Virus record (IMG/VR): IMGVR_UViG_3300037423_000584
Reading direction: 5' to 3' (one strand)
Source of the DNA: a virus
DNA: 64,000 nt
Each line of letters opens with the position of its first letter. Position 1 is the first letter of the stretch. A model generated the notes under the pieces. That model did not search any database. It was not told the DNA's origin and was given only the letters and a program-made list of their open reading frames with translations. Both the position numbers and the translations under genes were made by a program. This document shows, one piece after another, positions 44,592 to 61,691 of the stretch.

Positions 44592-45186
44592 ATTCCTTCT
44601 TTAGAATTTCGATAGCCTCTTCGAATCCTTTGCCCTCGTGGATTAATTGGTGAATCTTCGTGTGTACTTCTTTACAAATAGGAAGACCGTTGTTTGGATC
44701 GAATGCAAGTTCTGGACTTATATTCTCAGCTTTAGGAATAATATGATGTACTTCGATGTTATCTGTTCTTCCAGAAATGGCACATTTATTACCATACTTT
44801 TCCAATACTGCTTTTCTGAAATCATCATAAGCAGATTGATTCTTTGCCCATGCTGAGAAGGTGCTGCTTGCTCTGCCATCTTTCCAAGCAGGATGGCTTG
44901 GTCCTTTTTGATAAGCATGTTTGCACAATTCATCACAGAATTGGTTCTTGCTGTAAATTACTTTGCTATTTGGTCTACGGAAAAATGCTCCGCAGTTACC
45001 ACACATACAAAGAGTGCCAACAATTTCCTTCCCATTGCGTGGAAACTGGTGTCCGATTTGTTTGGCAAGTTTACGAATGAAAGGACGGCTTAGACCAGTC
45101 TTCTTTTCAATTTCTCTCTGGCCTTCGCCGGACAAAATAAGATCTACTGCGTAAGCTTTTTCTGATTCAGGAACTATTCTAGGCAT
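44569..45186 (-). CDS. HTH + Zn-finger + HNH endonuclease
   Basis: QREIEKKTGLSR; CGNCG...FCDELC; CAISG...EVHHI...NGLPICKEVH. Confidence 0.85.
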   Translation of the reverse strand: MPRIVPESEKAYAVDLILSGEGQREIEKKTGLSRPFIRKLAKQIGHQFPRNGKEIVGTLCMCGNCGAFFRRPNSKVIYSKNQFCDELCKHAYQKGPSHPAWKDGRASSTFSAWAKNQSAYDDFRKAVLEKYGNKCAISGRTDNIEVHHIIPKAENISPELAFDPNNGLPICKEVHTKIHQLIHEGKGFEEAIEILKKEYANGQGN

Positions 45187-46492
45187 TGTTTTCTCCGGTA
45201 ATTATTTTTACTATTTCTTCAAATGGTACTGTTTCTATTTCTCTTTCGCCAGCCAACATTGTGCTCATCTTCTTAGATCCATCTTTGTTCATTGAGTGAA
45301 TCAGGATCTTGGATTCTTTACATAAATTTTTGTTAAGTATATGATCTACAAATTCGCTTCCCTTCTGATTCATTCCTAAATCATAATCTAGGCAAATTAG
45401 GTCATATTTAGTTTCTTTGATTTTTTCTATCGCTTTTGATGGATTTGATGCAAAATCTAGCTTATTTTGATTAAAAACTTCCAAAAAGAACTGATGTCTA
45501 CGTAATTCATCATCAATAATCAGAATTTTTTTATCCTTTTCATTCTTAAATTCATTAACGAATTTACACTGAAAATTATTCATTATCACGATTTCTTTTT
45601 CAGGTATATAAGAATGTTCGTCCATTAGTATTGAGTCTTTTGTTCCATCAGGAAAAACATTGGGTTTTCGCCATTCTGATTTCTTCTTTTCTTTAGCAAG
45701 CCTTACAAGCTCCATATGCTTGCCGTATTCTTCTCTTGTTTGTCTATCTCTAAAAGCTTCTATCAAACCAACGAAGGTTGTATTACTTTTCTTGATTTGA
45801 TCTATTCTGTCTTTTCTTCGGGCATTGAGTTGATCCAAAAGTCTGTTTCTTGAATCAACGTTTTTCTGATAATCGTTCGTCATAATCTGAGCCTGAGCGT
45901 GCATACTTCTAACAAGATTCATAAGTTGGGCATCACGCTCTTGTGCATCTTCATCGTTGTCAATATCTGTTGCTTTTCTAAGAACATCAACTTCTTCTAT
46001 GGTCTTCTCAATTTCATCTTCGGCAACTCTAATGTTTCTAAGAATGCGGTTGCCCATGATTTCTGCTTTAATCAATTCATCAATCTGGCGTTTCTCTGTT
46101 GCAAGAATATCTTCGAATTGAATTGAAAGTGCTGCAAATTCTTCAAGATAGAATTTAATTTCACTTTCTGTAAACTGTTCTTTTAGATTGTCATAATATA
46201 GGCTGTTAACAAGCTGAGTCTTAAAGAACTCTTTTCTCTGTGCTTCTGTTAGATGCTGACCAATTCTTTTAGACGACACGGATGGTTCTGCTTTACTTGT
46301 CTTTTCTTTTCTGACTATATCTGTTTTAATAGACCCCTTAGAACCTTTAGCTATACCAAGTTTTCGACGAGCATATTTAATTGTACGAATATCTCTCTTA
46401 AGTTCTTTAGCAATTTGCTCATCGGTCTTATCGAGACAATTGCTTCTGATATATTCTAATTCTTGAGGTTTTAAATATGGATTCTTAGGCAT
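45179..46492 (-). CDS. HTH/coiled-coil protein (terminase small subunit candidate) fused to a cyclic-phosphate-processing-type receiver domain
   Basis: N-terminal TDEQIAKELKRDIRTI; C-terminal ILIIDDE...LDYDLG...G...ILIHSMN..G. Confidence 0.6.
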   Translation of the reverse strand: MPKNPYLKPQELEYIRSNCLDKTDEQIAKELKRDIRTIKYARRKLGIAKGSKGSIKTDIVRKEKTSKAEPSVSSKRIGQHLTEAQRKEFFKTQLVNSLYYDNLKEQFTESEIKFYLEEFAALSIQFEDILATEKRQIDELIKAEIMGNRILRNIRVAEDEIEKTIEEVDVLRKATDIDNDEDAQERDAQLMNLVRSMHAQAQIMTNDYQKNVDSRNRLLDQLNARRKDRIDQIKKSNTTFVGLIEAFRDRQTREEYGKHMELVRLAKEKKKSEWRKPNVFPDGTKDSILMDEHSYIPEKEIVIMNNFQCKFVNEFKNEKDKKILIIDDELRRHQFFLEVFNQNKLDFASNPSKAIEKIKETKYDLICLDYDLGMNQKGSEFVDHILNKNLCKESKILIHSMNKDGSKKMSTMLAGEREIETVPFEEIVKIITGENNA

Positions 46493-46493
46493 A

Positions 46494-47078
46494 TTATATC
46501 AATTTAATTTTCTTAGTTATTTCTTTCTTGAGCTTCTTTAGCTTCTGCTTAGAAAGTTTGCCACCAGAAACAAGCAAGTTAAAATCATGCAGATATTGTC
46601 TATCAATAACTTTCTCTAATTTGATTTTCATTTCGTCTGTAATCATCTTATTAATAGTATTATCTGAACTTACTCGCTCTATTTTTTCTTCTGTGGCATT
46701 TAATAGACTGTTACGACTTTCAAGAGACAGTTGATAATTTCGCCATTTATCACACTTGTCTTTCTCTGTTCCAAATCGGGCACAATCTACTTTTGAACCA
46801 GAATCAAAATATGGACATCTATGGCATGGAGACTTAACTGTCTTGGTAATATCTTTAAAACGATTAATAAGTCTATTTTTAACAGTGACACGCAAAAAAT
46901 GTTCCAAATTTCCTCTGTCTTCATTAAAATCTGGAAGTTTCTCCAAACAAATGATCCAAATTTCATTTTTTAGATCATTTTCGTCAAGATATCCAAACTT
47001 TTTTCCACAATGTTCATTGCTGATTTTATCGATTATATTAAATACATATTCATCCATCTTCTGATTCTTTCTTTTCAT
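46494..47078 (-). CDS. Phage sigma70-like factor with Cys-rich insert (late sigma candidate)
   Basis: Region 2-like DENDLKNEIWIICLEKLPDFNEDRGNLEHFLRVTVKNRLIN; CHRC...C...C insert. Confidence 0.7.
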   Translation of the reverse strand: MKRKNQKMDEYVFNIIDKISNEHCGKKFGYLDENDLKNEIWIICLEKLPDFNEDRGNLEHFLRVTVKNRLINRFKDITKTVKSPCHRCPYFDSGSKVDCARFGTEKDKCDKWRNYQLSLESRNSLLNATEEKIERVSSDNTINKMITDEMKIKLEKVIDRQYLHDFNLLVSGGKLSKQKLKKLKKEITKKIKLI

Positions 47079-48841: not shown

Positions 48842-49029
48842 TGTAATTCCTTTGCGAATTTTACTTTGTTTATATCAAACCGATATAAACTCTGAGTGTA
48901 ATAAAGTTTATTATTCATAGACTCAACAGACAGAGGGCCGGATAGCTGCCAGCCTTGGGCCAAAAGTTCGTTGATTTCTTTCTCGATCTTTTCTACTTGG
49001 GTTGAGTGAACAATTTTGATTTCATACAT
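48814..49029 (-). CDS. DUF1737-like small protein
   Basis: INELLAQGWQLSG...YTQSL. Confidence 0.6.
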   Translation of the reverse strand: MYEIKIVHSTQVEKIEKEINELLAQGWQLSGPLSVESMNNKLYYTQSLYRFDINKVKFAKELQWPNLERNQ

Positions 49030-49371
49030 AGATATTTTCCTTTCTCTATTAATTATCGTGTTTGTGTCTTTCTATGTTCTGAAAATATCGAGTTTGAATA
49101 CATGGGTCCGAATGATGGGCAACTTTCATACAGCAACGGTTGCCAGAAATAAAATCAGAGGGTGATAAAGAAAATAAGCATTGTTGTTTCTTTATAAAAA
49201 TGGGGGGTTAGAAGAATAAAAGAATATGAACGAAGGATGGGCATCTTCTTTTGGAAGATGCTGAGTGCTAGGGTTAGGGCCGCCCGCGGGGGGCCGCCGC
49301 AAATATCGACTAGTGTATATTTATAAAAACCTGGGGGCGTTAGGGCTTTGTGCGGTACGACAACCGCCTGC

Positions 49372-49386
49372 TGGCACGGCTTTTGC
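49372..49386 (+). promoter_or_regulatory. sigma54-type -24/-12 site
   Basis: TGGCACGGCTTTTGC (GG-N10-GC). Confidence 0.6.
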
Positions 49387-49448
49387 CTACGACATCCTGG
49401 CCGGAAATTTGTCAAATGTCGTACACTACTACGACAATGCGGCCGGTA

Positions 49449-49463
49449 GCAAAGACTGTGCCG
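49449..49463 (-). promoter_or_regulatory. sigma54-type -24/-12 site
   Basis: CGGCACAGTCTTTGC on the minus strand. Confidence 0.55.
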
Positions 49464-49553
49464 GACACCTGCCTAACAACCCCTGAAACTGTAACCCTTG
49501 GCGTGACAACGAGTTACGAAAAAAATGGACCGTTGAGGAATTTGGAACGGCAT

Positions 49554-49568
49554 CGGCACGGCCGTTGC
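49554..49568 (+). promoter_or_regulatory. sigma54-type -24/-12 site
   Basis: CGGCACGGCCGTTGC. Confidence 0.55.
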
Positions 49569-49637
49569 TCTATGTCTCCCGTCCCCACAAGGGACCGACC
49601 CCCGCAACGGGGGGCGTGACAAGTGACAACTAGGCTC

Positions 49638-49666
49638 TTGACTTGCACGCGGGGAGTCTCTACAAT
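49638..49666 (+). promoter_or_regulatory. sigma70 early promoter
   Basis: TTGACT-17 nt-TACAAT at the head of the plus-strand block. Confidence 0.8.
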
Positions 49667-49672
49667 CTCCCC

Positions 49673-50090
49673 GTTAGCCAGTACCGAAACCGAAGCGTCT
49701 GCCATTAGGTAGGTGTCAGGGAGTAGGGAAAGCGGATTATGGAAACTCAGTGTGAGTTTCCCCGCTAAGGGTCTAGACTGGTGACGAACGAAAGGATTGC
49801 CCGACACCTAGTAACAAAAACCTAACGGCCGGTATTAGGAATCTGAGATGGGGACAACCCCTGTTGACTGGTTCTAAGGTACGGGTTGGAGTGAAAATCT
49901 CCCGTTGGCTAACCCAACGCAAGTGAATAGTCGATACCTTAGCTAGATAGGCTTGCCCTATTTGCGTCCCGCAAGGGGTGTGGATTCGGACCCGATGCTA
50001 GCGAACGTAATCGGCCACGGGTTTTTGCGATGGCCCGGAAAATCGCACTAGGTACGTCGTGACGACGTGTATGGGTTTACCCCAGCCTAC
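49673..50090 (+). ncRNA. Structured leader / ncRNA downstream of the early promoter
   Basis: Stems TAGGTGTCAGGG/CCCGACACCTA, GGAAACTCA/TGAGTTTCC, CTAAGGTA/TACCTTAG, CCC-GCAA-GGG, ACGTCG-TGA-CGACGT; no credible ORF. Confidence 0.5.
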
Positions 50091-50165
50091 GGTACATAGA
50101 TGGATGGACCGCTGTACTCTGATATAGGGTAGCTGGGTTTAACGCTCCCATTAAGGTAGGTAGTG

Positions 50166-50285
50166 TTGCTTAACCAGTCTTATCATATATCGGAATATTG
50201 GCAGATGATGCCCGGCCTAGGCTATAAGCCTCAGAGAAAGCCGTTAAACTTGGGATTCGCGTTCCCCTCAGTCCCGCTTGTGTGA
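50166..50285 (+). CDS. Small ORF in stem-enclosed cassette A (about 39 aa)
   Basis: AAGGTAGG at 50153, then GTG/TTG start; MLNQSYHISEYWQMMPGLGYKPQRKPLNLGFAFPSVPLV. Confidence 0.4.
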   Translation: MLNQSYHISEYWQMMPGLGYKPQRKPLNLGFAFPSVPLV

Positions 50286-50545
50286 AGCGATACACTGATA
50301 AAACGCTATAGCGTCCGAAAAGATTCGCTTGTGTGACTAATGCCTTACCAGCGTTCACAAGGAATTGAAGTAGGACCACGATTGGAGTCAGCAACTAATC
50401 CGGAAGCTATTTGGATGGCCACTGGATAGCAGGATGTAAATTAAAGAGCGATTGAACGCTTCTATTCAGAGTATAGCCGTCCGTCCATCTGTGGTAAGTA
50501 AACTAGGTGAGTGGTCCGGCCTACCCTCAGAAAAGGTAGGTAGGT

Positions 50546-50812
50546 ATGCAACGGAACACTACGGTTCAAGAGGAACAGGAACGGCGAGAAGTGCAACGCT
50601 TTGGGAAAGCTTGCCACGAAGCGTTAGACGCTTGCCTTCGTAATGTCGAAAGTGCAAGGGTGACGTTTACTGGTCAAGGCGTGGAAGTGGGTGCAATCTC
50701 TCTCCGCATCGTTAAGACGTATGATGGCGAAAACCGGCCGGTTAGGTTGGTATCGGCATCTGCTACGCTCAAATTGCGTCTAAATGCATCGGCAGCTATC
50801 GAAAACAAGTAG
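50546..50812 (+). CDS. Early hypothetical protein (cassette B)
   Basis: AAGGTAGGTAGGT leader; enclosed by helix 50503-50528/50831-50856. Confidence 0.75.
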   Translation: MQRNTTVQEEQERREVQRFGKACHEALDACLRNVESARVTFTGQGVEVGAISLRIVKTYDGENRPVRLVSASATLKLRLNASAAIENK

Positions 50813-50907
50813 TCGGATCGGCTTCGTGCAGAGGGTACGCCGCACCATTCATCTAGGTTACTAGGATATTGCGAGTCTCCCATAGTCCCCTTACAAGGTA
50901 GGTGATT

Positions 50908-51138
50908 ATGGTTCAACATCTAATCAAAGTCGCCAAAGGTACGATTAATAATCCCGAAATCGTTCGGGTCTATACAATCACTAATGGGATTGTGTCGTAT
51001 CACATGGATTTTGTGGATTGGTTATCGGCTACAGAAATGTATCCCGATGGTTCATTTATCGATATGTTCGATGTTGGGATGCATCGTATCGGTGAAACGT
51101 TGGGGTTTTTCCCCGAAATATCAGCACTGGTCAATTAG
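50908..51138 (+). CDS. Early hypothetical protein (cassette C)
   Basis: AAGGTAGGTG leader, ATG at 50908; enclosed by helix 50865-50893/51147-51175. Confidence 0.75.
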   Translation: MVQHLIKVAKGTINNPEIVRVYTITNGIVSYHMDFVDWLSATEMYPDGSFIDMFDVGMHRIGETLGFFPEISALVN

Positions 51139-51251
51139 CGAACCCATAAGGGTTCTATGGGGGATTCTCAATATCTGAAAACATATCTACGGTATCGGTC
51201 AAGGTTTCACTTTTGAGCAATCCGAAAGGATTGCGGAAGGATGGTATTACC

Positions 51252-51719
51252 ATGACTCAGATCGATACTCCCGTCGAATCCTCTGCCGATGCCACTGAAG
51301 GCCAGCGGCAGGGTGCCGCTCCGGCCGCCCCGAACGCGGATGCGGAGCATTCGACCCGCGTCAAGAAGGTGATGGCCGACGTTCTCAAGCCCGGTTTCGG
51401 GAATGAGAACAAGGATGCCGCATTCACCCGCAAGATCGTGCAGTTGACGTTCCAGCGGGAACTCGGGAACGTGGACATCGCCGACAAGTCGGCCGATTCT
51501 GTGTACGCCGAAGCGTGCAAGCGGATCGCCGACAACGCCGAAGTCGAAGGCCAAGCGTTGAAGGAGCGATATATCGCGTCCGTCACCGCCGTCGCCTTGG
51601 GTGCTACGCGGGCCGTTACCCTTAAGGGTAACGTCACCGCGATGGAAGCGAGCAAGGCATACGTCAATTTCAAGCCGTCGGCCAAGCTCAACAACCAGAC
51701 GTTCTTCAACGCTCTGTAA
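51252..51719 (+). CDS. Early Ala-rich protein with GC-rich codons (cassette D)
   Basis: AAGGATGGT leader, ATG at 51252; enclosed by helix 51181-51198/51751-51768. Confidence 0.8.
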   Translation: MTQIDTPVESSADATEGQRQGAAPAAPNADAEHSTRVKKVMADVLKPGFGNENKDAAFTRKIVQLTFQRELGNVDIADKSADSVYAEACKRIADNAEVEGQALKERYIASVTAVALGATRAVTLKGNVTAMEASKAYVNFKPSAKLNNQTFFNAL

Positions 51720-51782
51720 CAAGATCCAACACTCTAACTGTCTCTAGTTTCCGGTATCGTAGATATGTAGTAGCTTAGATAG

Positions 51783-51824
51783 AACAAGAGGCGACCGGGC
51801 ACCGTGCCCGGCCGCTCTTGTTTG
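51783..51824 (+). terminator. GC-rich hairpin / terminator ending the cassette array
   Basis: AACAAGAG-GCG-A-CCGGGCAC...GTGCCCGG-C-CGC-TCTTGTT. Confidence 0.6.
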
Positions 51825-52187
51825 GGAGATAACTACGACATTATGTCGTACCTAACAAATGTTAGGAACGACGGGGAGTCGTACGACATTCTGACACCGA
51901 ACAGGTGTTAGGGTGTCTTTGTGTCGCACCTAACGCTTGGCTAACCAGGCAAGGTGTCGTACCGAACAAAAGCCAGCCGAACAAAAACCTAACAGCAGAC
52001 TCGGATGCCGACAGGCGGAGAGTCTGCGAGCGGCTGCGGCGAAGTACGGGCAACGTGCTTATGATTACTGTATCGGCAATATAGCTCTCTATGCGTCATT
52101 CTGACGCGGTACTACCAAGTAAGATTGTCACACTGTAAATTCAGGCGATGACAATAAGCTATGGTTAGTACATATATCTTATCCGTA

Positions 52188-53260
52188 ATATAGTTCGCCC
52201 CAACCTTGTGATAGGTTGTCGATGATGCGAACAAATGCGGAGTCAACAGTAGCCAAGTACGGAATTGGCTAGGGTTGTCTTGGTATACTTGTAGGTGTCC
52301 AATGATCCTGAAAGGGTGAATTGGGCGTCGAAACTATATCAGGCTTCTACAGTGACTCTGGTGCCTTGGGTTAGCTCTATCGCGTCCCCTATGCTGTTGG
52401 TCAATAGACTGGCGTATAGGTTCGGTGTGGTATCTAATCTGAGAGCATCCCCTCTTTAGACGTAGAGGGTCAAAGACCGAAGGCAAGGCAAAGCACTACG
52501 TGGACACGTAGATGGTTAGGGATTGATACCTAATGGGTTTCCCTATCCTACCTACCTAATACCACAGTGACTAAGCGGTGCATACCGCATATCCAAACAG
52601 GATAGCAACTGTTAGGGATATGGACTGGAACACTGACGAAGGGGTACATATCTACCATTGAAGGCCAGACGGTTATCGAAGCCGAATGTAGATTCCCCGC
52701 TGATACGAAAGAAACTCTATCGAAGGTGCAAAGGCGAAGTCATCTTAGATGACGAAGTAGCCGATGAGGTCGATAGTGACGAGTAGTTGAATGTGAAATG
52801 AATGGCCTAATTAACATAACCCGAACCCAGGATATCCAAGTAAGAACGGTTGGACAGCTATCACATCGAAAGTCAAGCGATGATGCTGCATCACTTCCTA
52901 GTATGAAAACGGATAGCGTCTTTCCTATAATGACGTAAATGGCTGGGATAACTAAACTTATAGACGATTGTAGGTTGTCGTATAACCTACAGTTTGTAGT
53001 GTAACCATTTCAAAACTTGTCTCATGTAATAGTCCCAAACACAATGCAGTCAGAGCAAAGCTCATTCTGAATCCATTGATTATGCGTGGGTTTCGCTATG
53101 GAGTCCTTTGGACTCAGATTGCAACTCTGTCGTCAAACGACATGGACTAACACAGATTAGGTTTCGAAAGAAACTGATACCTCTCGGTATCGTTTTGGAT
53201 GGAAGCACGAACAACACATGCGGGGATCGGTTCGTGAATAACTGACCGATTCCCTTTTTT
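52188..53260 (+). ncRNA. Large ornate non-coding RNA candidate (about 1.1 kb), family unassigned
   Basis: No ORF of 60 aa or more in six frames; about 20 contiguous hairpins, GAAA tetraloops and long-range stems; ends in a terminator; followed by a tRNA. 5' boundary approximate. Confidence 0.7.
53222..53260 (+). terminator. Terminator with TGAATAA loop
   Basis: GGGGATCGGTT..TGAATAA..GACCGATTCCC followed by a T-run. Confidence 0.8.
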
Positions 53261-53293
53261 CGTTTCCAAATCCAGGTTCTAACTAAAAAGGTA

Positions 53294-53366
53294 GGGCATA
53301 TAGCTCAACGGTTAGAGCAGAGCACTCATAATGCTTTGGTTCTAGGTTCGAATCCTAGTATGCCCA
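53294..53366 (+). tRNA. tRNA with CAT anticodon (Ile2 likely; elongator Met possible)
   Basis: Full cloverleaf GGGCATA...CT-CAT-AA...TTCGAAT...TATGCCC-A; no initiator features; CCA not encoded. Confidence 0.9.
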
Positions 53367-53394
53367 TTGGTCATCTAACAAAGGTAGGTTAGCT

Positions 53395-53481
53395 ATGGTC
53401 AAGTTTGATCGAACGTTCTTGTTCTTGGTTTCGTTCCTCATGCTTGCATGGGGATTGGCAGCGGTCGCGTCCAGGCATTAA
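53395..53481 (+). CDS. Small membrane peptide (28 aa)
   Basis: AAGGTAGGT leader; MVKFDRTFLFLVSFLMLAWGLAAVASRH. Confidence 0.6.
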   Translation: MVKFDRTFLFLVSFLMLAWGLAAVASRH

Positions 53482-53539
53482 TTGCGGCGGCTGCTCGGAA
53501 GGATGGTAAGGAAACCCATTTTTACTAAGGTAGGTAAAT

Positions 53540-53815
53540 ATGCGTCGTTCTCTTCGTTCACTCATGGATGGATCGGCCGTAGGTGGCGTTTGTCATTCGG
53601 TTGAAACTCCTAATCCGCGTAGGGTTGGATTTTATCCCAACGTGGAAGGATTTGAATGGATTCATGATAATTTCGTGAATACCGATCAAATCGTTGAACA
53701 GCAAATCAAGCTGGGATATCATCCGGCCGGTTATGGCGGTCCTTATGATATCAAGCAGGAGCAGAGGGGTGATAAGGTTATTATCACTTGGAAATGCTCT
53801 GATAATTGTGATTAA
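53540..53815 (+). CDS. Hypothetical phage protein
   Basis: AAGGTAGGT leader; QIKLGYHPAGYG...TWKCSDNCD. Confidence 0.75.
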   Translation: MRRSLRSLMDGSAVGGVCHSVETPNPRRVGFYPNVEGFEWIHDNFVNTDQIVEQQIKLGYHPAGYGGPYDIKQEQRGDKVIITWKCSDNCD

Positions 53816-53870
53816 AAATCACTCACAACCTCTGTATCGAAAGATACTTAGGTTGTTTCTACCTACCTTG

Positions 53871-53980
53871 AGAATCCATACATTGAATAGATGTGTGGGT
53901 TCTTTGCTCAGCCAGATGGCAGATAATATTAATAAGTCTGGCTAAAGTCCCATCGATGAATAACTGATGGGATTTTTTAT
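53871..53980 (+). terminator. Two terminator-like hairpins with TGAATA(G/A) loops
   Basis: 53871-53905 and 53944-53980, each followed by a T-run. Confidence 0.65.
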
Positions 53981-54140
53981 TGATAAGTACAGGGTCGCCT
54001 CATAGTAAGCCAATTTCCCCTAGTCAGAGCATATAGGGCTTGCAAGGCTTAAGAATGGGATAACCATCACCCTGTTACATTTAATAACAAATCGCGGTCG
54101 TTGCCGCGAAACATGGATACCATCAAAGGTAGGTATTATC

Positions 54141-54647
54141 ATGGAAAAGCTTCGTCGTCTAATTCTTGACGGTATGAAGAACGTTGACGGTTATATTACC
54201 GTTACTGCTTTAGCTGAGGGTATTAAAAAAATATCATCATTTACTGTTGATGAAGTGAAAACCGAAATCAACCGTATGGTTCTTGATGGGATTTTGGATA
54301 CCTTTTATGCCCGATCCGAAGCGGATTTGGCTATTAGACAGCTTAGTAAGAATAAGCAAAAGGTCTATATTCGAGATTATCTTGTGTCTCGAAATGGTGC
54401 GGTTTATATCTCTAATATTCCTCCCAATCATACTTCTGAACAGTTCAAAAATAGGAAGTATCTTTGGAAGAATAACACTTGGCACGATACGTGCTGTACA
54501 AGGGATCTGATGGATTCGGATAGCAAAAACTATACCGATTATCCGGGGATATGGACTTCCTTGGATGAGGCAATTAAGTTTGCTAAGTCTAAAGGTTACG
54601 ATCCTGTCGATCTAACTGATTCTATAATTCAGTCTCAGGTTATCTAA
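54141..54647 (+). CDS. Hypothetical protein (possible N-terminal winged helix)
   Basis: AAGGTAGGT leader; 168 aa. Confidence 0.7.
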   Translation: MEKLRRLILDGMKNVDGYITVTALAEGIKKISSFTVDEVKTEINRMVLDGILDTFYARSEADLAIRQLSKNKQKVYIRDYLVSRNGAVYISNIPPNHTSEQFKNRKYLWKNNTWHDTCCTRDLMDSDSKNYTDYPGIWTSLDEAIKFAKSKGYDPVDLTDSIIQSQVI

Positions 54648-54678
54648 GGCAATAATTCTTCTAAAGGTAGATACTATT

Positions 54679-54933
54679 ATGAATAACGTTGGCAACATTA
54701 GCGGCAAAACGATGATCACTCGTCATGCTGCTAATATCGTCAGTGAGACGAATCGTACTATGTCCGATAAGCCGGTGGCAGCTATGCAGAACCTTTGCAG
54801 GTTGCAGGGATATGTTACTGGCATGATCGAATCCTTGAAAATCAATGACAAGGAATGGATCGATGCCATGATGCATGGCTTGGATTCGGAGATTTTGAAA
54901 TATTCCAGGCAGATCACTATTCAGCATCCATAG
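54679..54933 (+). CDS. Hypothetical protein
   Basis: AAGGTAGA leader; 84 aa. Confidence 0.65.
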   Translation: MNNVGNISGKTMITRHAANIVSETNRTMSDKPVAAMQNLCRLQGYVTGMIESLKINDKEWIDAMMHGLDSEILKYSRQITIQHP

Positions 54934-55086
54934 TTTTGTATCGGCCTATGGTCCAAAACATACCAAAACCTCATTATTAGCTCAAAAACGAGGATTGGTG
55001 TTGTGTCCGCCTATGGTCAAAAACTGACCTTTCGGGTGTTTATAGGTTTAAATTATTACCATAAACATCCTTCTCATACCTACCTT

Positions 55087-55126
55087 GACACTCGTTATAG
55101 GGAAACCTGTAGCGGGTGTTTCTTTT
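55087..55126 (+). terminator. Terminator with GAAA loop
   Basis: GACACTCGTTATAGG-GAAA-CCTGTAGCGGGTGTT followed by TCTTTT. Confidence 0.7.
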
Positions 55127-55504
55127 GGAAACCGCGTTTTTAGCGTGAAAATGCGAGTTTTGTATTATTTGTGAATCGGTCTAGCAAAATATCACATAAA
55201 CAAACCCGAAAACTCGACAAAAAGCTCCGTTGCCTTATATCTATATGGTATAAGTATAAGAATAATAAAGATTATTGATATTGGATATAGGGATTTAATT
55301 AATAAACCCGATTATTTGTTCAAAAATAAGGGTTTTTTCATAAATTACAAGGAAATTCGCAGTATGCACCCCAATTCTATTCGCCTTAGCTATAAGTATT
55401 ATGGTAATAAGGGTAATAGTTATAAGAAAGAGTATAAGTATAAGGGGTTGTTTAGTAATATTAAGATCAAACCTTGATTTTTAGATCAAAAACGAGGTTT
55501 TAGT

Positions 55505-55615
55505 ATGAATCGTGACAATGTACCATCGTCCACGCTTGTAGTAATAGGTATAGTTTCTATGCTTATTATTATGAGTGTGGGATTAGGTATAATTATATGG
55601 TTTATATGGCCTTAA
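55505..55615 (+). CDS. Small membrane protein (36 aa)
   Basis: GAGG upstream; MNRDNVPSSTLVVIGIVSMLIIMSVGLGIIIWFIWP. Confidence 0.5.
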   Translation: MNRDNVPSSTLVVIGIVSMLIIMSVGLGIIIWFIWP

Positions 55616-55728
55616 ACGGCCGTATAGGCTTTGATCACATGTCTAGTGTAATAGTACATTAAAACCTAATTCTAGGTGAATTGGGAATGTATTGTTAGAT
55701 AGGTATACCAAACAAAGGTAGGTATAGT

Positions 55729-55827
55729 ATGCCGTTTGAATACAATAGCGATTATAAGATCGATTGGAACAACGAAGAAGATATGGATTGGTTGATGAAC
55801 CATATCGATTCGTATCTCAGTCGATAG
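55729..55827 (+). CDS. Small acidic protein (32 aa)
   Basis: AAGGTAGGT leader; MPFEYNSDYKIDWNNEEDMDWLMNHIDSYLSR. Confidence 0.6.
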   Translation: MPFEYNSDYKIDWNNEEDMDWLMNHIDSYLSR

Positions 55828-55868
55828 TTATTTGATCTTGGGACTCTGATTTAAAAGGTAGGTGATCA

Positions 55869-56090
55869 ATGAAAGTTAATGTGGTTTTAAAGAATGCAGA
55901 CTTTACAGAATGTAGAGGTCCGATGCTTTTCCATAAAGTCTTTGTCGATCTAGACAAAGCTGTGGAATATGTAAAAGGACAAAGTGGGATATTTGGGGGT
56001 CAGCAGTACGATAAACCTTCTTCGTTTTCTTCCAAAAACAGATTAAGTTTTAATGGTTTTGATATCCTTACCGATATCGAACTTGAATAG
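55869..56090 (+). CDS. Hypothetical phage protein
   Basis: AAAGGTAGGTGATC leader; NADFTECRGPM. Confidence 0.7.
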   Translation: MKVNVVLKNADFTECRGPMLFHKVFVDLDKAVEYVKGQSGIFGGQQYDKPSSFSSKNRLSFNGFDILTDIELE

Positions 56091-56101
56091 GGCAGAATCG
56101 T

Positions 56102-56269
56102 ATGAAACAGAACACTCTCTTTAAGACTCATAAGTTGTTTCAAACAACAGAAAAAGATGGTTTGTGGGGAGGAAAGATCACAATCTATCGTTGCTCTTGT
56201 TGCGGAAAACGATGGAGTGGTATTGGTAAAAAGCCTTCTGCTGGTGAAAGATGCAGAGGGAAGAATTGA
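56102..56269 (+). CDS. Small Cys-containing protein (55 aa)
   Basis: YRCSCCGKRW Zn-ribbon-like motif. Confidence 0.5.
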   Translation: MKQNTLFKTHKLFQTTEKDGLWGGKITIYRCSCCGKRWSGIGKKPSAGERCRGKN

Positions 56270-56506
56270 TATATAGTCCAAATTGCTAAGTGTTTGGCTA
56301 GGACCCTGATACTGAATAAGTATTAGGGTCTTTTTGTAATAATAATCCTGAAACGGCAGGATGGGTTATCAAGTAAAAAAGAGATATAGCCGTCAACTTA
56401 TCTCTTCTCTGATAAGACGGACCAGCGATGGTACACTGGTTATTATTACATTGAAATTCTAATATCGAAAGATGTTAGAGTTTCTTTATTTTAAAGGTAG
56501 GTTAAA

Positions 56507-56917
56507 ATGCGATTCTCTGAATGGTCAGATGGATCGATGCCCGTGTTTCTTAATCCAACCCATGACGAAATTGTGGAATTGGTTAAGTCTCATCCTGATA
56601 CGCTTCGTATCTGTGAAGATGACAATAATATAGCTGTTGCTAGTGGCTATGGTAATACACATACAAGTGTTATTAAAGTCATCAGAAAGAATGCTATAAA
56701 GGATTTCTTTCCATTGGACTTGATTCTCTTTAGAGAAACTGGCCGATGGTTATGGAATCCGTTGGGTCATTGGGATAGGGTACTAACAGAACGAGTAGGA
56801 TTTGAATCTGGGTTGCGGTTTTTGTCTGATAAGACAAAGGAGTTTGTTTTAGAGTTTGTTAGGATTGCAGAGGATCAATATAGGACAACAGAGTCTAATA
56901 TTATAGACTTTGAATAA
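56507..56917 (+). CDS. Hypothetical protein
   Basis: AAGGTAGGT leader; 136 aa. Confidence 0.7.
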   Translation: MRFSEWSDGSMPVFLNPTHDEIVELVKSHPDTLRICEDDNNIAVASGYGNTHTSVIKVIRKNAIKDFFPLDLILFRETGRWLWNPLGHWDRVLTERVGFESGLRFLSDKTKEFVLEFVRIAEDQYRTTESNIIDFE

Positions 56918-56936
56918 AATTTAAGTGGGCTAGGGC

Positions 56937-57176
56937 ATGAAGATTGCGAATTGTCAGTTTAATGAAGATAAACTGATTGTTGTTGTTAATGAAGAATCAG
57001 AATATCTATTCAAACATCCATCTATTAGAGATTTTGGAAGACATTTCTCTAGTAATGGTAAAGAACTTAAACCCACGAATTATTGGGTTTATAAATATGA
57101 TAGATATGATAGAGATTTAAAACTTGACGAAATCATTCTTCATCTGAACGAATTAGGATATACGGTTTTGTTTTAA
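56937..57176 (+). CDS. Hypothetical protein
   Basis: 79 aa in operon. Confidence 0.6.
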   Translation: MKIANCQFNEDKLIVVVNEESEYLFKHPSIRDFGRHFSSNGKELKPTNYWVYKYDRYDRDLKLDEIILHLNELGYTVLF

Positions 57177-57189
57177 AAGGTAGGCAAAT

Positions 57190-57384
57190 ATGCAACAAGA
57201 AAACTTGGAAGATTTGCCAAAACGTCAGCGTGTGAGTGCTGAGAATCACCACGCTTGTCGTCCATTGTGTCCATGTTGTGGAGGTGGCGATAATCGTAAA
57301 GGTTATAAACATACGAAGGCAACAAGCAGATATCATAGTGCAAAGTCCCGTAGATCGAAACCAAAGAAGAAGGATCATCAGTAA
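57190..57384 (+). CDS. Small basic Cys/His-rich protein (possible RNA binder)
   Basis: AAGGTAGG leader; HHACRPLCPCC...KSRRSKPKKKDHQ. Confidence 0.65.
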   Translation: MQQENLEDLPKRQRVSAENHHACRPLCPCCGGGDNRKGYKHTKATSRYHSAKSRRSKPKKKDHQ

Positions 57385-57390
57385 TAAGCA

Positions 57391-57465
57391 GGGCACATAG
57401 CTCAACTATGGTAGAGCAGCCGTCTCCAAAGCGGCAGGTTTTTGGTTCGAATCCAAATGTGCTCG
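57391..57465 (+). tRNA. tRNA-Trp (CCA)
   Basis: Cloverleaf GGGCACA...GCCGT-CT-CCA-AA-GCGGC...TTCGAAT...TGTGCTC-G. Confidence 0.9.
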
Positions 57466-57492
57466 TTATATTAATAGAAAGGTAGGAAGTGT

Positions 57493-57729
57493 ATGAATTT
57501 GATTCAGGGTTGTAATTATCAAGTTAAGAAAGATCATCGTTTTCATCCGGGTCGATTTGGTCAGTTTCAATTTCTTGGTGGGCCTAATCGAGAAGCAATT
57601 GTTATGTCTGATTTGCAAGATTCAAAAAGTATCTTTGCAGTAGGATTGAATGACCTTGTTGATTTTGATCCTGCCAAAGATGATGTATTTGAAAATGCTG
57701 TACCGGGAAGAATGTTAGAATTAAGCTAA
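57493..57729 (+). CDS. Hypothetical protein
   Basis: AAGGTAGG leader; 78 aa. Confidence 0.7.
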   Translation: MNLIQGCNYQVKKDHRFHPGRFGQFQFLGGPNREAIVMSDLQDSKSIFAVGLNDLVDFDPAKDDVFENAVPGRMLELS

Positions 57730-57877
57730 GATCAGCATCTTTGATTGTCCCCTTCGTAGAACTTCAAGATTGAATAAGTCTTGGGTTCTTTTGTAGATAG
57801 GTTAGGTGACATCAGAGTCTTATAAAATGCCGAAAGGTATAGCCTATCTACTTAATTTAAAAATAAAGGTAGACAAC

Positions 57878-58129
57878 ATGAAAGCTAAATATATTATTTT
57901 GGAACGATCTGGTATCGAAATGCCAATTTTGTTTCCAGAATTTATTGAACACATAGATGCTGTACTAATTGGTGGTAAAGTTATATCTGCTGGATTTTTT
58001 GAAGTTATTCTTCGCGAACATTCAAGAATGGAAGTGAGAGCCTACGGAGAAAGCATTAGCCTTAAAGTAAAGGCTAGATTCGAAGATGCTGATTTGATCG
58101 AGAAAATGATCTGTAATTATGAGAATTAA
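57878..58129 (+). CDS. Conserved phage hypothetical protein
   Basis: AAGGTAGA leader favours ATG 57878; PILFP..I.H...VISAGFF...YGESISL. Confidence 0.7.
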   Translation: MKAKYIILERSGIEMPILFPEFIEHIDAVLIGGKVISAGFFEVILREHSRMEVRAYGESISLKVKARFEDADLIEKMICNYEN

Positions 58130-58140
58130 GGTAGGTTTGT

Positions 58141-58590
58141 ATGCAAACCAAATCAATTGTTCGTGAAAACGCAGAAAAAGATCCGAATTATGCACCGTAT
58201 TGTATGCCTTGTCCTCGTTTGGTTCGAATGAAGAAAATCGAACCATTCTTTTGGAAGTGCGATAAGTGCGGTGCCGAATGCGACGAACGAGAGATTAAGC
58301 AAGAAGATATTGATAAGCTTGATGAGCTTCAATCGAAAGAGAATGATGGTCGTGGTATTTCTTGTGTAAAAACCATCCTTTTCTTTCTTAGACATAATAA
58401 AATTGATGAAGCTAGGGCTTGCAGGCAAAACGAAGGCGACAAGATTAATTCTTATCCATTGGTCGAATTACAAATCAACAAGATGTTTGGTTGCAGAACG
58501 CATTTAAGGAAGATGTGTAATCATTGGCTTTGCGTTAGTCTTCTAAATGGGACCAAGGCAAAAACAGTTGTTGCCCCGCATCATGGATAA
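58141..58590 (+). CDS. Zn-ribbon-containing hypothetical protein
   Basis: YAPYCMPC...WKCDKCGA; AAGGTAGGT leader. Confidence 0.7.
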   Translation: MQTKSIVRENAEKDPNYAPYCMPCPRLVRMKKIEPFFWKCDKCGAECDEREIKQEDIDKLDELQSKENDGRGISCVKTILFFLRHNKIDEARACRQNEGDKINSYPLVELQINKMFGCRTHLRKMCNHWLCVSLLNGTKAKTVVAPHHG

Positions 58591-58592
58591 CC

Positions 58593-58901
58593 ATGATTAC
58601 GCATGTTGCTATACTTGATATAAATAAGAAAATTTGGTCATTACCTAGACCCAACCGTCATCATAATGTAATTCATATGATTAATGAACAATCTGGTAGA
58701 GATATTGCCAGAGGTTTATTAAAAGATCATGTGCAAGGATTTATGAATGACTCTGGTCAATTTTTAACACGAAAAGAAGCATTTTATGAAGCGTTAAGAT
58801 GTGATCAATTGTTACCACCTTATAATCCAATTAATCCATCTGAAAGACATGGTGAGATTAATAAAAATCCTAGAGAATTATTCTCAGAGGATTTGTGGTA
58901 G
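58593..58901 (+). CDS. Conserved phage hypothetical protein
   Basis: PNRHH...QGF...FLTRKEA...LFSEDLW. Confidence 0.75.
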   Translation: MITHVAILDINKKIWSLPRPNRHHNVIHMINEQSGRDIARGLLKDHVQGFMNDSGQFLTRKEAFYEALRCDQLLPPYNPINPSERHGEINKNPRELFSEDLW

Positions 58902-58974
58902 ATTTTGCCCCTTGAGTTCCAGGCAGGAATCCAATAGTAAACAACTGTTGGATTCTTTTAAAGGTAGGTGAAAT

Positions 58975-59301
58975 ATGGAAGATCCGGTTTTAGAAGCTAT
59001 ATCGCTTCTAATGGAAAGTTTCTTGCCTCAAATGTCTGGTTCTGAGACAGTTAGACATAGAATTTGTGATGAATTTGTTCAGTTCCAAGTTGATAGAGAT
59101 ATCTTTATCGATTGGATGAAAGTTCATCCTGAATTTAAGATGCTTAAGGAGATCAAAGCACTAGTTCTTCTTAAGAACAATAAGAACAGAATGATTAAAC
59201 AGTTTTCTGTTGATTCATTTATTACTTCTTATCTTACTAAACCTAATCGTCATAAAGATTCATTGGTTCGTGAAGCTGGACGAAAGTTTGGTTTGACATA
59301 G
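58975..59301 (+). CDS. Hypothetical protein
   Basis: AAGGTAGGTG leader; 108 aa. Confidence 0.7.
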   Translation: MEDPVLEAISLLMESFLPQMSGSETVRHRICDEFVQFQVDRDIFIDWMKVHPEFKMLKEIKALVLLKNNKNRMIKQFSVDSFITSYLTKPNRHKDSLVREAGRKFGLT

Positions 59302-59361
59302 ACGATCAATAAGATCGTCATTGATCTTATATGATCTTTCTTTCTTAAAAGGAGAAAGGTC

Positions 59362-59616
59362 ATGGACAAAGAGACTCAAAGAAAAATAGATCATCTGTTT
59401 CAAAAACAGATAATGAAAAATATTCCAGAAATTGTGTTAATGGCACAACTGGTTATTTTTAGTCAAGAGAATAGAGATACAGAAGCAATAAAGAAAGAGA
59501 TCCAGCACAGACGACGGTTAAATAAATGGCTTGATGAATATGGTACATGGCACAAGGGACAAGCTCCATATGGTGCCGATGCTATACTTGAACAAATAAA
59601 TAAAATGAAATCGTAA
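59362..59616 (+). CDS. Hypothetical protein
   Basis: AAGGAG/AAGGT leader; 84 aa. Confidence 0.65.
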   Translation: MDKETQRKIDHLFQKQIMKNIPEIVLMAQLVIFSQENRDTEAIKKEIQHRRRLNKWLDEYGTWHKGQAPYGADAILEQINKMKS

Positions 59617-59640
59617 TCAATTACAAATTATTTTATGTAT

Positions 59641-59676
59641 TGATGAGTTCGCTTCCGTATACTGATGAGTTCGCTT
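59641..59676 (+). repeat. 14-bp direct repeat (operator-like)
   Basis: TGATGAGTTCGCTT twice, 22-bp period. Confidence 0.7.
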
Positions 59677-59694
59677 GACAAAGGTAGGTAGATT

Positions 59695-60204
59695 ATGCGG
59701 AATTTGGCTAAACCGTTTCGTCCGGTTCGTTTGATTAATGATAAACCTTATGAATTGGATACCATGCGTATGGGTCCGAAGGGTCAATCGGTTAACACAA
59801 CTGGTTGTTTCGGTGTTCAATCCACATACGGGGTTCGTGGATTAAGTATTGTTAATCGGAAAATAGCTCCGGGCAAACACAAAGGTGCGGTTAAGAAAAA
59901 AAATGGTTCTAGGCTTATTTCTGCAAGAACTATTCTTAACTTTGATCGAACATCTTTGCCGAAATTGTTAAATATTCGGAACGATCTTGTTTTCCTTAAG
60001 GCTCTTAATGGTCTTTCGGAAGATATGGATCAGGTTTTGAATGATTTAACTGATTATATGTTGGCAAGTTATGGTTCATCGATTAAGAAGTTCGACGAAC
60101 AACGTATTCGTACTGCCAAGGGGATGATTGGCAAAATTCAAGTTAAACCCATGAATGATCTTAAAGAGAAGATCAATCGGGCTTTGGCTATCATGGGTGG
60201 ATGA
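59695..60204 (+). CDS. Basic hypothetical protein
   Basis: AAGGTAGGT leader; 169 aa. Confidence 0.7.
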   Translation: MRNLAKPFRPVRLINDKPYELDTMRMGPKGQSVNTTGCFGVQSTYGVRGLSIVNRKIAPGKHKGAVKKKNGSRLISARTILNFDRTSLPKLLNIRNDLVFLKALNGLSEDMDQVLNDLTDYMLASYGSSIKKFDEQRIRTAKGMIGKIQVKPMNDLKEKINRALAIMGG

Positions 60205-60422
60205 TGAACACTTTGGATAAAATAAAACTTATTCCTAAAAATAAGTGGATGAAAGACAGAATACAACGACATGGAGATGTTGTTATATTCAAAAAAGAAG
60301 GTTTGTTTAAAGGTAAAAAAGCTTTACTTGTAGAATCACTTAATAATACTTCTATTGTCAATACCAAGTGGTTGGCTTGGATTGTTTTAGAAGAAGACGC
60401 ATCTATTGTTGTAATAAAATAG
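60201..60422 (+). CDS. Hypothetical protein
   Basis: 73 aa, ATGA-coupled to the upstream gene. Confidence 0.6.
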   Translation: MMNTLDKIKLIPKNKWMKDRIQRHGDVVIFKKEGLFKGKKALLVESLNNTSIVNTKWLAWIVLEEDASIVVIK

Positions 60423-60471
60423 ATTTCCTACCTTGAGAATCCTGTAACTGAATAAGTTGCAGGATTTCTTT

Positions 60472-60573
60472 GTATACATACGAGGCCGCGGTGGCTCGGG
60501 GAGACGTTCCCTAGTTCCGTTCGATTCGGGTACTTGGTAGAGATAGCATTCGACAGCTATCCCGTATGTATAC
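60472..60573 (+). ncRNA. Small multi-hairpin RNA candidate
   Basis: Perfect 11-bp closing stem GTATACATACG/CGTATGTATAC; internal hairpins with TTCGA loops. Confidence 0.55.
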
Positions 60574-60582
60574 TTAATATAT

Positions 60583-60689
60583 GGCGTTGGGTAGGCCGGC
60601 GTCGATAACCGGCTAAATCTTCGGATGACCTTGGCAGGACTACCCTCGGAAAAGGCTCATTACCATCCGGGTTCGAATCCCGAACGCCA
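60583..60689 (+). ncRNA. tRNA-like RNA (acceptor + T arm, non-canonical core)
   Basis: GGCGTT...CGGG-TTCGAAT-CCCG-AACGCC-A; no D or anticodon arm. Confidence 0.6.
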
Positions 60690-60762
60690 TTTTCTCTCGG
60701 TAAGGTATAGCAAAGTAGTTATACCTTATTATCCTGTTGTTTTATATAGGGGAAGTTAGCTT

Positions 60763-60972
60763 ATGTTTGGGGATCATTTGTCTTTGGCCAATCTTTGGGT
60801 AAAGATGGCAAAGTTGCATGAGCTAATGGGACAAGATGCAGCATCTAGATTAGCAATTAGAAATGCTTCTTATCACATTGAAGAAGCAGCAAAACTTCAA
60901 CATCAAACTGTTCGATTTAATAGGGAAGGCGGTGATGTCATATGCTCTAGTACAAAAATAGCTTGTGCATAA
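60763..60972 (+). CDS. Hypothetical protein
   Basis: 69 aa; AGGGG upstream. Confidence 0.5.
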   Translation: MFGDHLSLANLWVKMAKLHELMGQDAASRLAIRNASYHIEEAAKLQHQTVRFNREGGDVICSSTKIACA

Positions 60973-61137
60973 GTCGGACCCCCATTCTTATGCACTAATA
61001 GCTGATTAGGGGTACAAATTTGGAGGATATATGCAAGCTTAGCTTGTACTACTTAATAAACAATAAAATAAATTAAATATCACACGCGGATTCCGATGCT
61101 TCAAATACCTCATTCTGAATAAGAGTGGGGTATTTTT

Positions 61138-61395
61138 ATGGAACCTATCGAAGAAGCAAAAGAGCTTCTAAGAACAATATACTATTATGCCACTAGAGAT
61201 TCTAATATTCTTTGGTGGCATTCATTGAATAGCGAGACAGCACTAGAACTACTTAATAATGGATCTTTGATTGATATCTATGATTTTTTGACAGATATCA
61301 AAGATTGGGCCACTAGTGAAGGTGATGATGTTGGTCCCGATTGGTGGCAACAAAATAATTTAACGAAACGAATTTTATCTATTGACCTTTCATAA
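61138..61395 (+). CDS. Hypothetical protein
   Basis: 85 aa; start abuts the terminator hairpin. Confidence 0.6.
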   Translation: MEPIEEAKELLRTIYYYATRDSNILWWHSLNSETALELLNNGSLIDIYDFLTDIKDWATSEGDDVGPDWWQQNNLTKRILSIDLS

Positions 61396-61407
61396 AGGTA
61401 GGTAATC

Positions 61408-61662
61408 ATGAGCAAAGAACAACTGCTCGAAACAGTTGGAAGTTTTACTTGGAGCTTTCATGATAAGTTCCTTGTCGAGATTCCAAATGTTGGCAATTTT
61501 GTTTGGAGCGATCCAGATTATCGTGGGGATAATTCCTTTAAACGATATGATGGAAATTACAAACAGTGGTGCAAAGAAGAAGGAATTCCTTTCGGTCGCG
61601 ATAAAGGAAAACATAAGATTCGAAATTATTGCGGATCTGAAATCAAGATTGTCGGACTGTAA
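61408..61662 (+). CDS. Hypothetical protein
   Basis: AAGGTAGGT leader; 84 aa. Confidence 0.7.
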   Translation: MSKEQLLETVGSFTWSFHDKFLVEIPNVGNFVWSDPDYRGDNSFKRYDGNYKQWCKEEGIPFGRDKGKHKIRNYCGSEIKIVGL

Positions 61663-61691
61663 ATCTATTGATTTATTAAAGGTAGGTTGAT

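Follow-up and report, generated by a model that had tools for sequence, protein, structure and literature searches.

The window analysed here, a stretch of 64,000 nucleotides corresponding to bases 42356-106355 of the complete 172,542-bp IMG/VR virus record IMGVR_UViG_3300037423_000584, contains a block of small genes that begin behind the same short sequence, AAGGTAGG. This element is a real, highly non-random and class-specific ribosome-binding-site (RBS) tag, carried by about 20 small ORFan genes. In RNA the full tag is written AAGGUAGGU and corresponds to the Shine-Dalgarno (SD) sequence AAGGAGGT with one inserted U, as had been recognised in an earlier note made from the letters of the window (at 55854 the sequence reads AAAGGTAGGTGATC). 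We regard as evenly balanced the proposition that the tag is the split SD of one gene class and doubles as the address for antisense elements encoded by the phage, through which the class would be controlled as a whole. The chances that the phage operates an RNA-based switch with the tag as its address are likewise roughly even. Among the alternatives raised in the earlier note, a phage-specific translation signal is the one that lies closest to the evidence presented below.

Twenty copies of the tag are present in the window, where 1.38 are expected from shuffled sequences (maximum of 5; 0 of 100 shuffles reach 20). Seventeen are found on the + strand within 11.5 kb (50153-61686) and three as reverse complements at 53862, 55079 and 60427 (Table 1), with the whole genome holding 21 forward and four reverse copies. 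The 17 forward copies had all been listed at their correct positions in the earlier note; what its inventory missed were the three reverse complements, two one-mismatch variants, AAGGTAGA, at 54664 and 57866, both RBS-placed, and, beyond the window, two further copies at RBS distance from a start (genome 110362 and 111250), 6-7 kb past the block. It had also placed sixteen copies at RBS distance from a start codon. Fifteen of these are clear, lying 5-7 nt before the ATG of an open reading frame (ORF) of 28-170 aa, and the copy at 50153 is doubtful, since it precedes only a GTG or TTG. The seventeenth does overlap the 5' end of a tRNA, the tRNA-Met at 53288. In an unbiased, position-specific k-mer test, which considered 7-mers located 3-8 nt upstream of ATGs that open a reading frame, AAGGTAG was the top start-associated 7-mer of the genome (18 of 39 copies, P ~1e-19). 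A logo of 21 sites has shown that the conserved part comprises only 9-10 nt, (A)AAGGTAGGT, with nothing conserved upstream, and that the inserted U is invariant (21/21). Spacing to the start codon, 4-7 nt at 17 window sites, falls within the 4-9 nt of a canonical SD. An uninterrupted match to the CCUCC core is lacking, with the best duplex bulging the U, and the tag contains none of GGAG, GAGG or AGGA. A reading of the tag as a promoter or as the start of leaderless mRNAs was discarded, given that only 9-10 nt are conserved, that these are too near the ATG for a -10 element and that the genes are tightly packed; promoter-like matches were not above the shuffle level (37 vs 45).

The distribution of the tag follows gene class. 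On a crude gene map the genes run rightward over 1-41 kb, leftward over 41-91 kb in a structural block that holds the terminase, portal and head proteins, and rightward again from about 92.4 kb up to the genome end. The tag block stands at the very start of this third block, just past the strand switch, and presumably consists of early genes, a timing suggested by its position and content. No Pfam or PHROG family was matched by the tagged proteins; early phage genes are usually without a known family. Phage databases returned no match to 9 kb of the block in megablast or to the head protein in tblastn, and the phage is without a close relative among deposited phages. GGAG, GAGG or AGGA is found upstream of only 2 of the 18 called genes in the block. 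Gene 59362, inside the block, has the canonical AAAGGAGA. The untagged genes 58593 and 60201 overlap the preceding stop codon and are probably translationally coupled, and genes 56937, 60763, 61138 and 62213 have other upstream sequences. In the other blocks, the same three motifs precede 22-44% of genes, compared with 7-12% in control windows, and the major head gene and its neighbour have the SD TAAGGAGA. The GGAG-type sites that the earlier note had ascribed to late genes, and the class difference that it had drawn from them, are borne out.

As the rest of the genome, capsid genes included, uses GGAG or AGGA, the host ribosomes evidently read canonical SDs. This bears on the suggestion that the tag is simply the ordinary SD of a host with a variant 16S tail, ...ACCUACCUU, for which nothing speaks beyond the perfect match to that hypothetical tail. 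The tag precedes only about 20 genes out of the roughly 280 in the phage, the others having canonical cores, and four distant IMG/VR relatives, reached via the large terminase TerL (~45% identity), have AGGAG or AAGGA throughout with no enrichment of the tag. A scan for a 16S end reading ...GGATCACCTACCTT (scan string GCGGYTGGATCACCTACCTT) in one genome per species, covering 185,579 species, gave two matches, neither of them in rRNA and both without an Rfam match. One published study describes the CCUCC core as conserved across the bacteria that it examined (PMC6288834). A variant host anti-SD is hardly tenable on these grounds and can be considered essentially rejected.

The phage itself encodes complements of the tag. 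All four exact reverse complements in the genome (ACCUACCUU) lie on the + strand, which is the transcribed one, in non-coding contexts. Three are in 3' untranslated regions (3' UTRs) of the block, each directly 5' of a terminator-like hairpin with a U-rich tail (Table 1). Two of these hairpins, at 53870 and 60437, have their flanks and a GAAUA loop in common, and their stem interiors differ with compensation. The fourth complement, at genome positions 117374-117381, is located outside the window, 13 kb downstream of the block. It occupies part of the 18-nt loop, UUUGACUACCUACCUUUU, that caps a hairpin insert in the D-arm of a tRNA-shaped RNA (Rfam tRNA, 42.5 bits); the 'anticodon' loop of this RNA has 5 nt. 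The probability of finding a 9-mer complement in an 18-nt loop by chance is ~4e-5 per loop. In every anti-motif tract, including a further one at 52547, the A that would partner the bulged U of the tag is present. Exact scans found the antisense loop nowhere else in IMG/VR and the combination of anti-motif and terminator in none of the metagenomes.

Predicted pairing energies separate the two possible partners of the tag. Against the canonical 16S tail, AAGGUAGGU reaches -7.8 kcal/mol (8 bp plus the bulged U), where AAGG and AGGU each pair; against the loop of the tRNA-shaped RNA it reaches -12.6 kcal/mol (9 bp), with 9-13 contiguous bp for single sites when flanks are included. The canonical SD, taken in these comparisons as AAGGAGGU (a tag form with another bulged base being AAGGCAGGU), shows the reverse preference, with -11.6 kcal/mol against the anti-SD and -7.7 against the phage loop. 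Tag and anti-tag would thus form an orthogonal pair, since by these energies AAGGAGGU prefers the anti-SD and the tag prefers the loop. Averaged over the early block, predicted pairing with the anti-SD is nevertheless the strongest of any RBS class in the genome (-7.45, compared with -4 to -5 elsewhere), so that the tag sites should be good RBSs despite the bulge. It can be argued that something besides the anti-SD reads the tag, because the U is unpaired on the ribosome and yet invariant.

Comparison with related phages has placed these elements in an evolutionary setting. Closer relatives were reached via a conserved cREC-domain protein near the strand switch and by walking along contigs. 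The nearest, here called REL (contigs L116/L117), has 61% identity in that protein. Its early ORFs are unrelated to those of the present phage, with essentially no early genes in common, and it is consequently the leader, rather than the genes, that is conserved. About 18 early leaders of REL follow the pattern AACCUACC-NN, a 3-30 nt loop, NN-GGAUGGU, 1-6 nt and AUG, and the NN positions covary in three types: CCCU/AGGA, CCUC/GAGA and CCUA/UAGA. Leaders of the REL type are also present in L113 and L134, and three of cis type were found in L133/L134. In general form, the leader hairpin of the relatives is ACCUACCNN-loop-NNGGAUGGU-AUG, and its 5' arm, ACCUACC(UU), is identical in sequence to the anti-motif of the present phage. 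An alignment was made of 23 leaders, of which 21 come from three relatives (REL, L113 and L134) and two from this phage. In it, 85.1% of cells are paired, as opposed to 78.4% in shuffles (0 of 500 reach this value) and 34-55% in slid registers, and 17 cells are changed on both sides, as opposed to 7.2 in shuffles (0 of 500). Two pairs of the hairpin covary, one as C-G/U-A and the other as U-A/C-G/A-U. The two leaders from this phage are one of the relatives' type, retained at genome positions 115000-115031 outside the window (CCTACCCT..AAGGATGGT..ATG), and a hybrid at 50520, whose arms can pair like the leader hairpin of the relatives. A further relative, L132, has neither leader type; small hairpins of its own, GCUCUUGAAAGGAGC-like and with the SD in the 3' arm, precede several of its early genes (L132:12380-18830). 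Together with the REL-type leaders, these indicate that lineage-specific structured early leaders are a habit of the clade. No anti-leader RNA was found in REL, where the one tRNA-like RNA with an insert lacks complementarity to the leader. When the cis-type leader was sought with degenerate patterns, in IMG/VR and among the matches listed in metagenomes, only single matches at chance level came up, which were uninformative. An RNase III site was also considered for the relatives' hairpins and dismissed, as they are only 7 pairs long.

The mechanism that we propose starts from the tag as a functional split SD, which, its U bulged out, would direct a high level of early translation by the unmodified ribosomes of the host. 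The extra U would at the same time turn the tag into a private 9-nt address, perfectly complementary to the ACCUACCUU elements of the phage. These may be supplied from three sources, namely the terminator-proximal single-stranded tails of early transcripts, the tract in the island upstream of the block and the loop scaffolded by the tRNA-shaped RNA. On accumulating, they would cover the RBSs of the whole class at once and spare canonical SDs. The most likely effect is a shut-off of early translation, which we infer in preference to protection or activation. In the relatives, the same two elements lie in cis and form a weak hairpin that encloses the SD of the leader. The present phage seems to have shifted its anti-RBS arm from cis to trans, and its RBS arm would have become a perfect complement of the ACCUACCUU arm. 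A wider version of this proposal is offered tentatively, as possible but more open to doubt than the core of it: the two elements would constitute an orthogonal SD-like pair with one U-A base pair inserted, by which some 20 early genes could be switched as a class by RNA only. The clade would then record a transition of an operator from cis to trans, with the relatives in the ancestral state, and the seeds might be released as 3'-UTR fragments.

Several observations weigh against pairing in trans, and some of them would suit a plain strong RBS without any partner. According to that explanation, a split SD would be optimal for fast early translation, either through two overlapping half-sites or through a favourable combination of duplex strength and spacing, and the complements would be coincidental or unrelated. 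The tag does give the best predicted anti-SD pairing in the genome, and at three sites the match to 16S runs on as GGUGAU(C) (GGTGAT in DNA). Selection in the flanks for complementarity to the loop is not significant past 9-10 nt (an A follows GGT at 8 of 16 sites, the background being 33%), and the predicted accessibility of tag sites is like that of other RBSs (0.49 vs 0.47). The energies, moreover, were predicted with a canonical 16S tail standing in for that of the host. The anti-motif before terminators could serve another signal, such as a nut-like boxA/boxB arrangement of a linear box and a hairpin. The covariation in the relatives comprises only three arm haplotypes, and cassette duplication could explain part of it. 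Scans of IMG/VR and metagenomes found no sister phage in which an altered tag is matched by an altered anti-tag, which leaves the trans pairing without support from covariation. The early timing of the block, its transcripts and the RNA-RNA pairing are predictions from the DNA sequence. A plain RBS is nonetheless an unlikely explanation. The canonical AAGGAGGU would pair better with the ribosome and is used elsewhere by the phage, and a base that is merely bulged should vary freely. Coincidental complements are also difficult to reconcile with the low chance probability of the 9-mer in the 18-nt loop, with the position of three of the four complements next to terminator hairpins, or with the cis pairing of the same two elements, accompanied by covariation, in the relatives.

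Proteins have also to be weighed as readers of the tag. An RNA-binding protein or endonuclease, from phage or host, might recognise AAGGUAGGU and repress, activate or cleave the early class, following the logic of RegA or RegB. An invariant 9-mer is typical of protein sites, the C-A mismatch and U-G pair kept in 20-23 of the 23 aligned leaders suggest that a specific shape is read, and most proteins of the phage are without known function. In T4, the RegB endoribonuclease acts on GGAG SD sites of early mRNAs, the SD of the early class serving as its address (PMC3014915). The present system would resemble this in using the SD of early genes to mark their whole class for inactivation once the early period is over. 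The differences are that RegB is a protein reading ordinary GGAG, which with its related motifs is rare in the initiation regions of the block, and that here the address is a non-canonical 9-mer and the candidate reader an RNA. The RegB family (PF10715) is absent from the complete 172-kb record, and the search for RegB-like or CsrA-like factors proposed in the earlier note came out negative, with no homologue of RegB, RegA, CsrA or bS21 found in the phage by Pfam. A CsrA site would have a GGA core, ideally in a hairpin loop, which the tag does not contain. The AAGGAUGG of the relatives resembles the CsrA consensus, but there the GGA is in the stem. With no candidate protein identified, and with the exact complements in loop and single-stranded contexts left unexplained by it, recognition by a protein is to be regarded as quite improbable.

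The central suggestion of the earlier note, that the inserted U abolishes GGA and GGAG and thereby shields early mRNAs from a GGAG-directed nuclease or a GGA repressor such as CsrA, finds its support in the absence of both motifs from the tag and in the GGAG of late genes. The equivalent early leaders of three relatives, however, keep GGA or GGAG (AAGGAUGGU, GGAGAUGGU and GGAGGAUGG), gene 59362 of the block has its canonical site, and the phage has neither a RegB nor a CsrA gene from which to escape. A GGAG nuclease of the phage would furthermore attack its own late mRNAs, and T4 RegB targets early genes instead of sparing them (PMC3014915). There is accordingly very little to recommend this suggestion.

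Switching of the class by phage antisense elements has a known parallel in the C4 RNA of P1/P7, which is processed by RNase P like a tRNA and has one loop that partly occludes the RBS of its target mRNA (PMC5320573). In both cases a structured phage RNA is involved, and here the tRNA-shaped RNA displays an exact complement of the RBS tag. A loop complementary to an RBS region, as in C4, is found in UUUGACUACCUACCUUUU (9-13 nt), a likeness that bears on function only and not on family membership. No match to the C4 family (RF01695) was found in the window at the gathering threshold or around the tRNA-shaped RNA at E values up to 1. The target differs as well, being a class of about 20 genes with a modified SD and not an immunity operon; additional anti-tags are located before terminators, and the function here is predicted. 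These terminator-proximal anti-tags recall a second group of regulators. Bacterial small RNAs (sRNAs) such as DapZ and CpxQ are derived from 3' UTRs and carry a terminator-proximal seed. The likeness lies in the single-stranded seed directly upstream of an intrinsic-terminator hairpin at the mRNA end, and the difference in its target, which in this phage would be its own RBS tag. In relation to a canonical SD, the tag occupies the same position before the start codon, both of its halves are complementary to ...ACCUCCUU..., and some sites reach the GAUC of the tail. What sets it apart is the invariant extra U, which interrupts the duplex and makes the predicted pairing ~4 kcal/mol weaker than that of AAGGAGGU.

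The arrangement of the block also invites comparison with PeSLs, sigma-70 promoters with terminator stem-loops that precede ORFans in the hyperplastic early regions of T4-type phages (PMC2839356). Both are repeated modules with an SD and a start codon at their end, placed before ORFans, and the leaders of the relatives hold a stem-loop. Unlike PeSLs, the present leaders have no conserved promoter, as no column upstream of the 9-mer is conserved, and the stem-loop is absent at 18 of 19 sites, this phage having lost the cis arm; in the relatives it is present but includes the SD. The tag could on this model be a recombination scar of mobile regulatory cassettes, a repeat kept for gene shuffling in a hyperplastic early region and not for a role in RNA. 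The ORFan 'slots' each follow the same leader, which is conserved where the genes are not, and one slot is filled by a tRNA (53288). The conserved 9-10 nt are nevertheless too short for homologous exchange and come with no flanking similarity, promoter or stem-loop, and their precise distance from the start codon argues for a role in translation. A scar of this kind is thus a rather remote prospect.

Table 1. Tag sites and anti-motif elements of the block (window coordinates)
Feature	Position	Strand	Context
Tag AAGGTAGG	50153..50160	+	In high-GC island; then GTG (+2) or TTG (+5) of doubtful 39-40 aa ORF
Hybrid leader	50520..50548	+	CCTACCCT, 5 nt (cagaa), AAGGTAGGTAGGT, ATG 50546 (88 aa); first clear early gene
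Tag	50895..50902	+	5 nt before ATG 50908 (76 aa); extends to AAGGTAGGTGAT
Anti-motif tract CCTACCTACCT	52547..52557	+	ORF-poor high-GC island upstream of block; complementary to AGGTAGGTAGG (50535-50545, first tagged gene)
Tag	53288..53295	+	Not an RBS; last two G are first two bases of tRNA-Met (53294-53366)
Tag	53381..53388	+	6 nt before ATG 53395 (28 aa)
Tag	53527..53534	+	5 nt before ATG 53540 (91 aa)
Anti-motif (A)CCTACCTT	53862..53904	+	3' UTR; directly 5' of 15-bp hairpin with loop GAAUA and U-rich tail
Tag	54126..54133	+	7 nt before ATG 54141 (168 aa)
Variant AAGGTAGA	54664..54671	+	7 nt before ATG 54679 (84 aa)
Anti-motif ACCTACCTT	55079..55128	+	Directly 5' of terminator-like hairpin: 15 pairs, GAAA loop, TCTTTTGG tail
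Tag	55715..55722	+	6 nt before ATG 55729 (32 aa)
Tag	55855..55862	+	6 nt before ATG 55869 (73 aa); context AAAGGTAGGTGATC, extended SD plus one U
Tag	56494..56501	+	5 nt before ATG 56507 (136 aa); directly after terminator-like hairpin 56453-56484
Tag	57177..57184	+	5 nt before ATG 57190 (64 aa)
Tag	57479..57486	+	6 nt before ATG 57493 (78 aa); just after tRNA-Trp (57391-57465)
Variant AAGGTAGA	57866..57873	+	4 nt before ATG 57878 (83 aa)
Tag	58128..58135	+	5 nt before ATG 58141 (149 aa); overlaps stop codon of upstream gene
Tag	58961..58968	+	6 nt before ATG 58975 (108 aa)
Tag	59681..59688	+	6 nt before ATG 59695 (169 aa)
Anti-motif CCTACCTT	60427..60475	+	5 nt past stop of gene 60201-60422; directly 5' of terminator-like hairpin
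Tag	61395..61402	+	5 nt before ATG 61408 (84 aa)
Tag	61679..61686	+	5 nt before ATG 61692 (170 aa); last copy of block

Additional features have been observed in and around the block. At the 53288 copy, it is as if a tRNA had filled a gene 'slot', and an anti-tag paired there would mask the RNase P site. Second among the start-associated 7-mer families of the genome is TGGGGTA(TT) (7 of 17 copies), with examples, in window coordinates, at 61120-61140, 69815-69830 and 70320-70337. The copies inspected lie beyond the window end, do not include that at 61120-61140, and resemble the 3' acceptor ends of tRNA-like RNAs abutting the ATGs of small ORFs. In REL, a 101-nt tRNA-shaped RNA (L117:7745-7845; Rfam tRNA, 45.4 bits) with a long hairpin in the anticodon arm is located in the early region. 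Terminator-like hairpins form a family on the + strand, with window members at 51885, 53870, 55087, 56300, 56453, 60437 and 63214 and with GAAUA, GAAA or GAACA loops. Members have flanks and loop in common and compensated stems, and 31 terminator-like sites were counted where 11.5 are expected. The high-GC island, at 49000-53250, is ORF-poor and hairpin-rich, with 43-51% GC in a phage of 35% GC, and separates the divergent late and early blocks. It holds the anti-motif tract at 52547 and matches no Rfam family. Islands are also found at the equivalent place in relatives (L116 10-12 kb, GC 0.59; L134 9-11 kb), with no alignment to this one. At 45179-47078 (- strand), the leftward block is headed by a 437-aa cREC_REC receiver-domain protein, conserved across the clade, and by an adjoining 194-aa protein with a weak match to sigma-70 region 2. 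Further along, a 929-aa ORF (27209-29998, - strand) coincides with a local GC peak of 0.57, the genome being at 0.35, which suggests a recent acquisition. The large terminase is intein-free in this phage, and many relatives have intein and LAGLIDADG insertions in theirs (P0008, P0035, P0044 and others; L113:16268-19618).

The shut-off of early genes in phages has mainly been attributed to proteins, such as RegB and RegA of T4, and to promoter switching. An RBS tag read by RNAs of the phage, if true, would constitute a compact answer to the class-wide shut-off of early genes that relies on RNA only. It would also represent a natural counterpart of the orthogonal ribosome-binding codes that synthetic biology constructs by design, and because the anti-SD is nearly universal the idea is open to simple reporters. 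Finally, early leaders that stay conserved over genes that turn over fully provide a practical marker for the early genes of uncultured phages.

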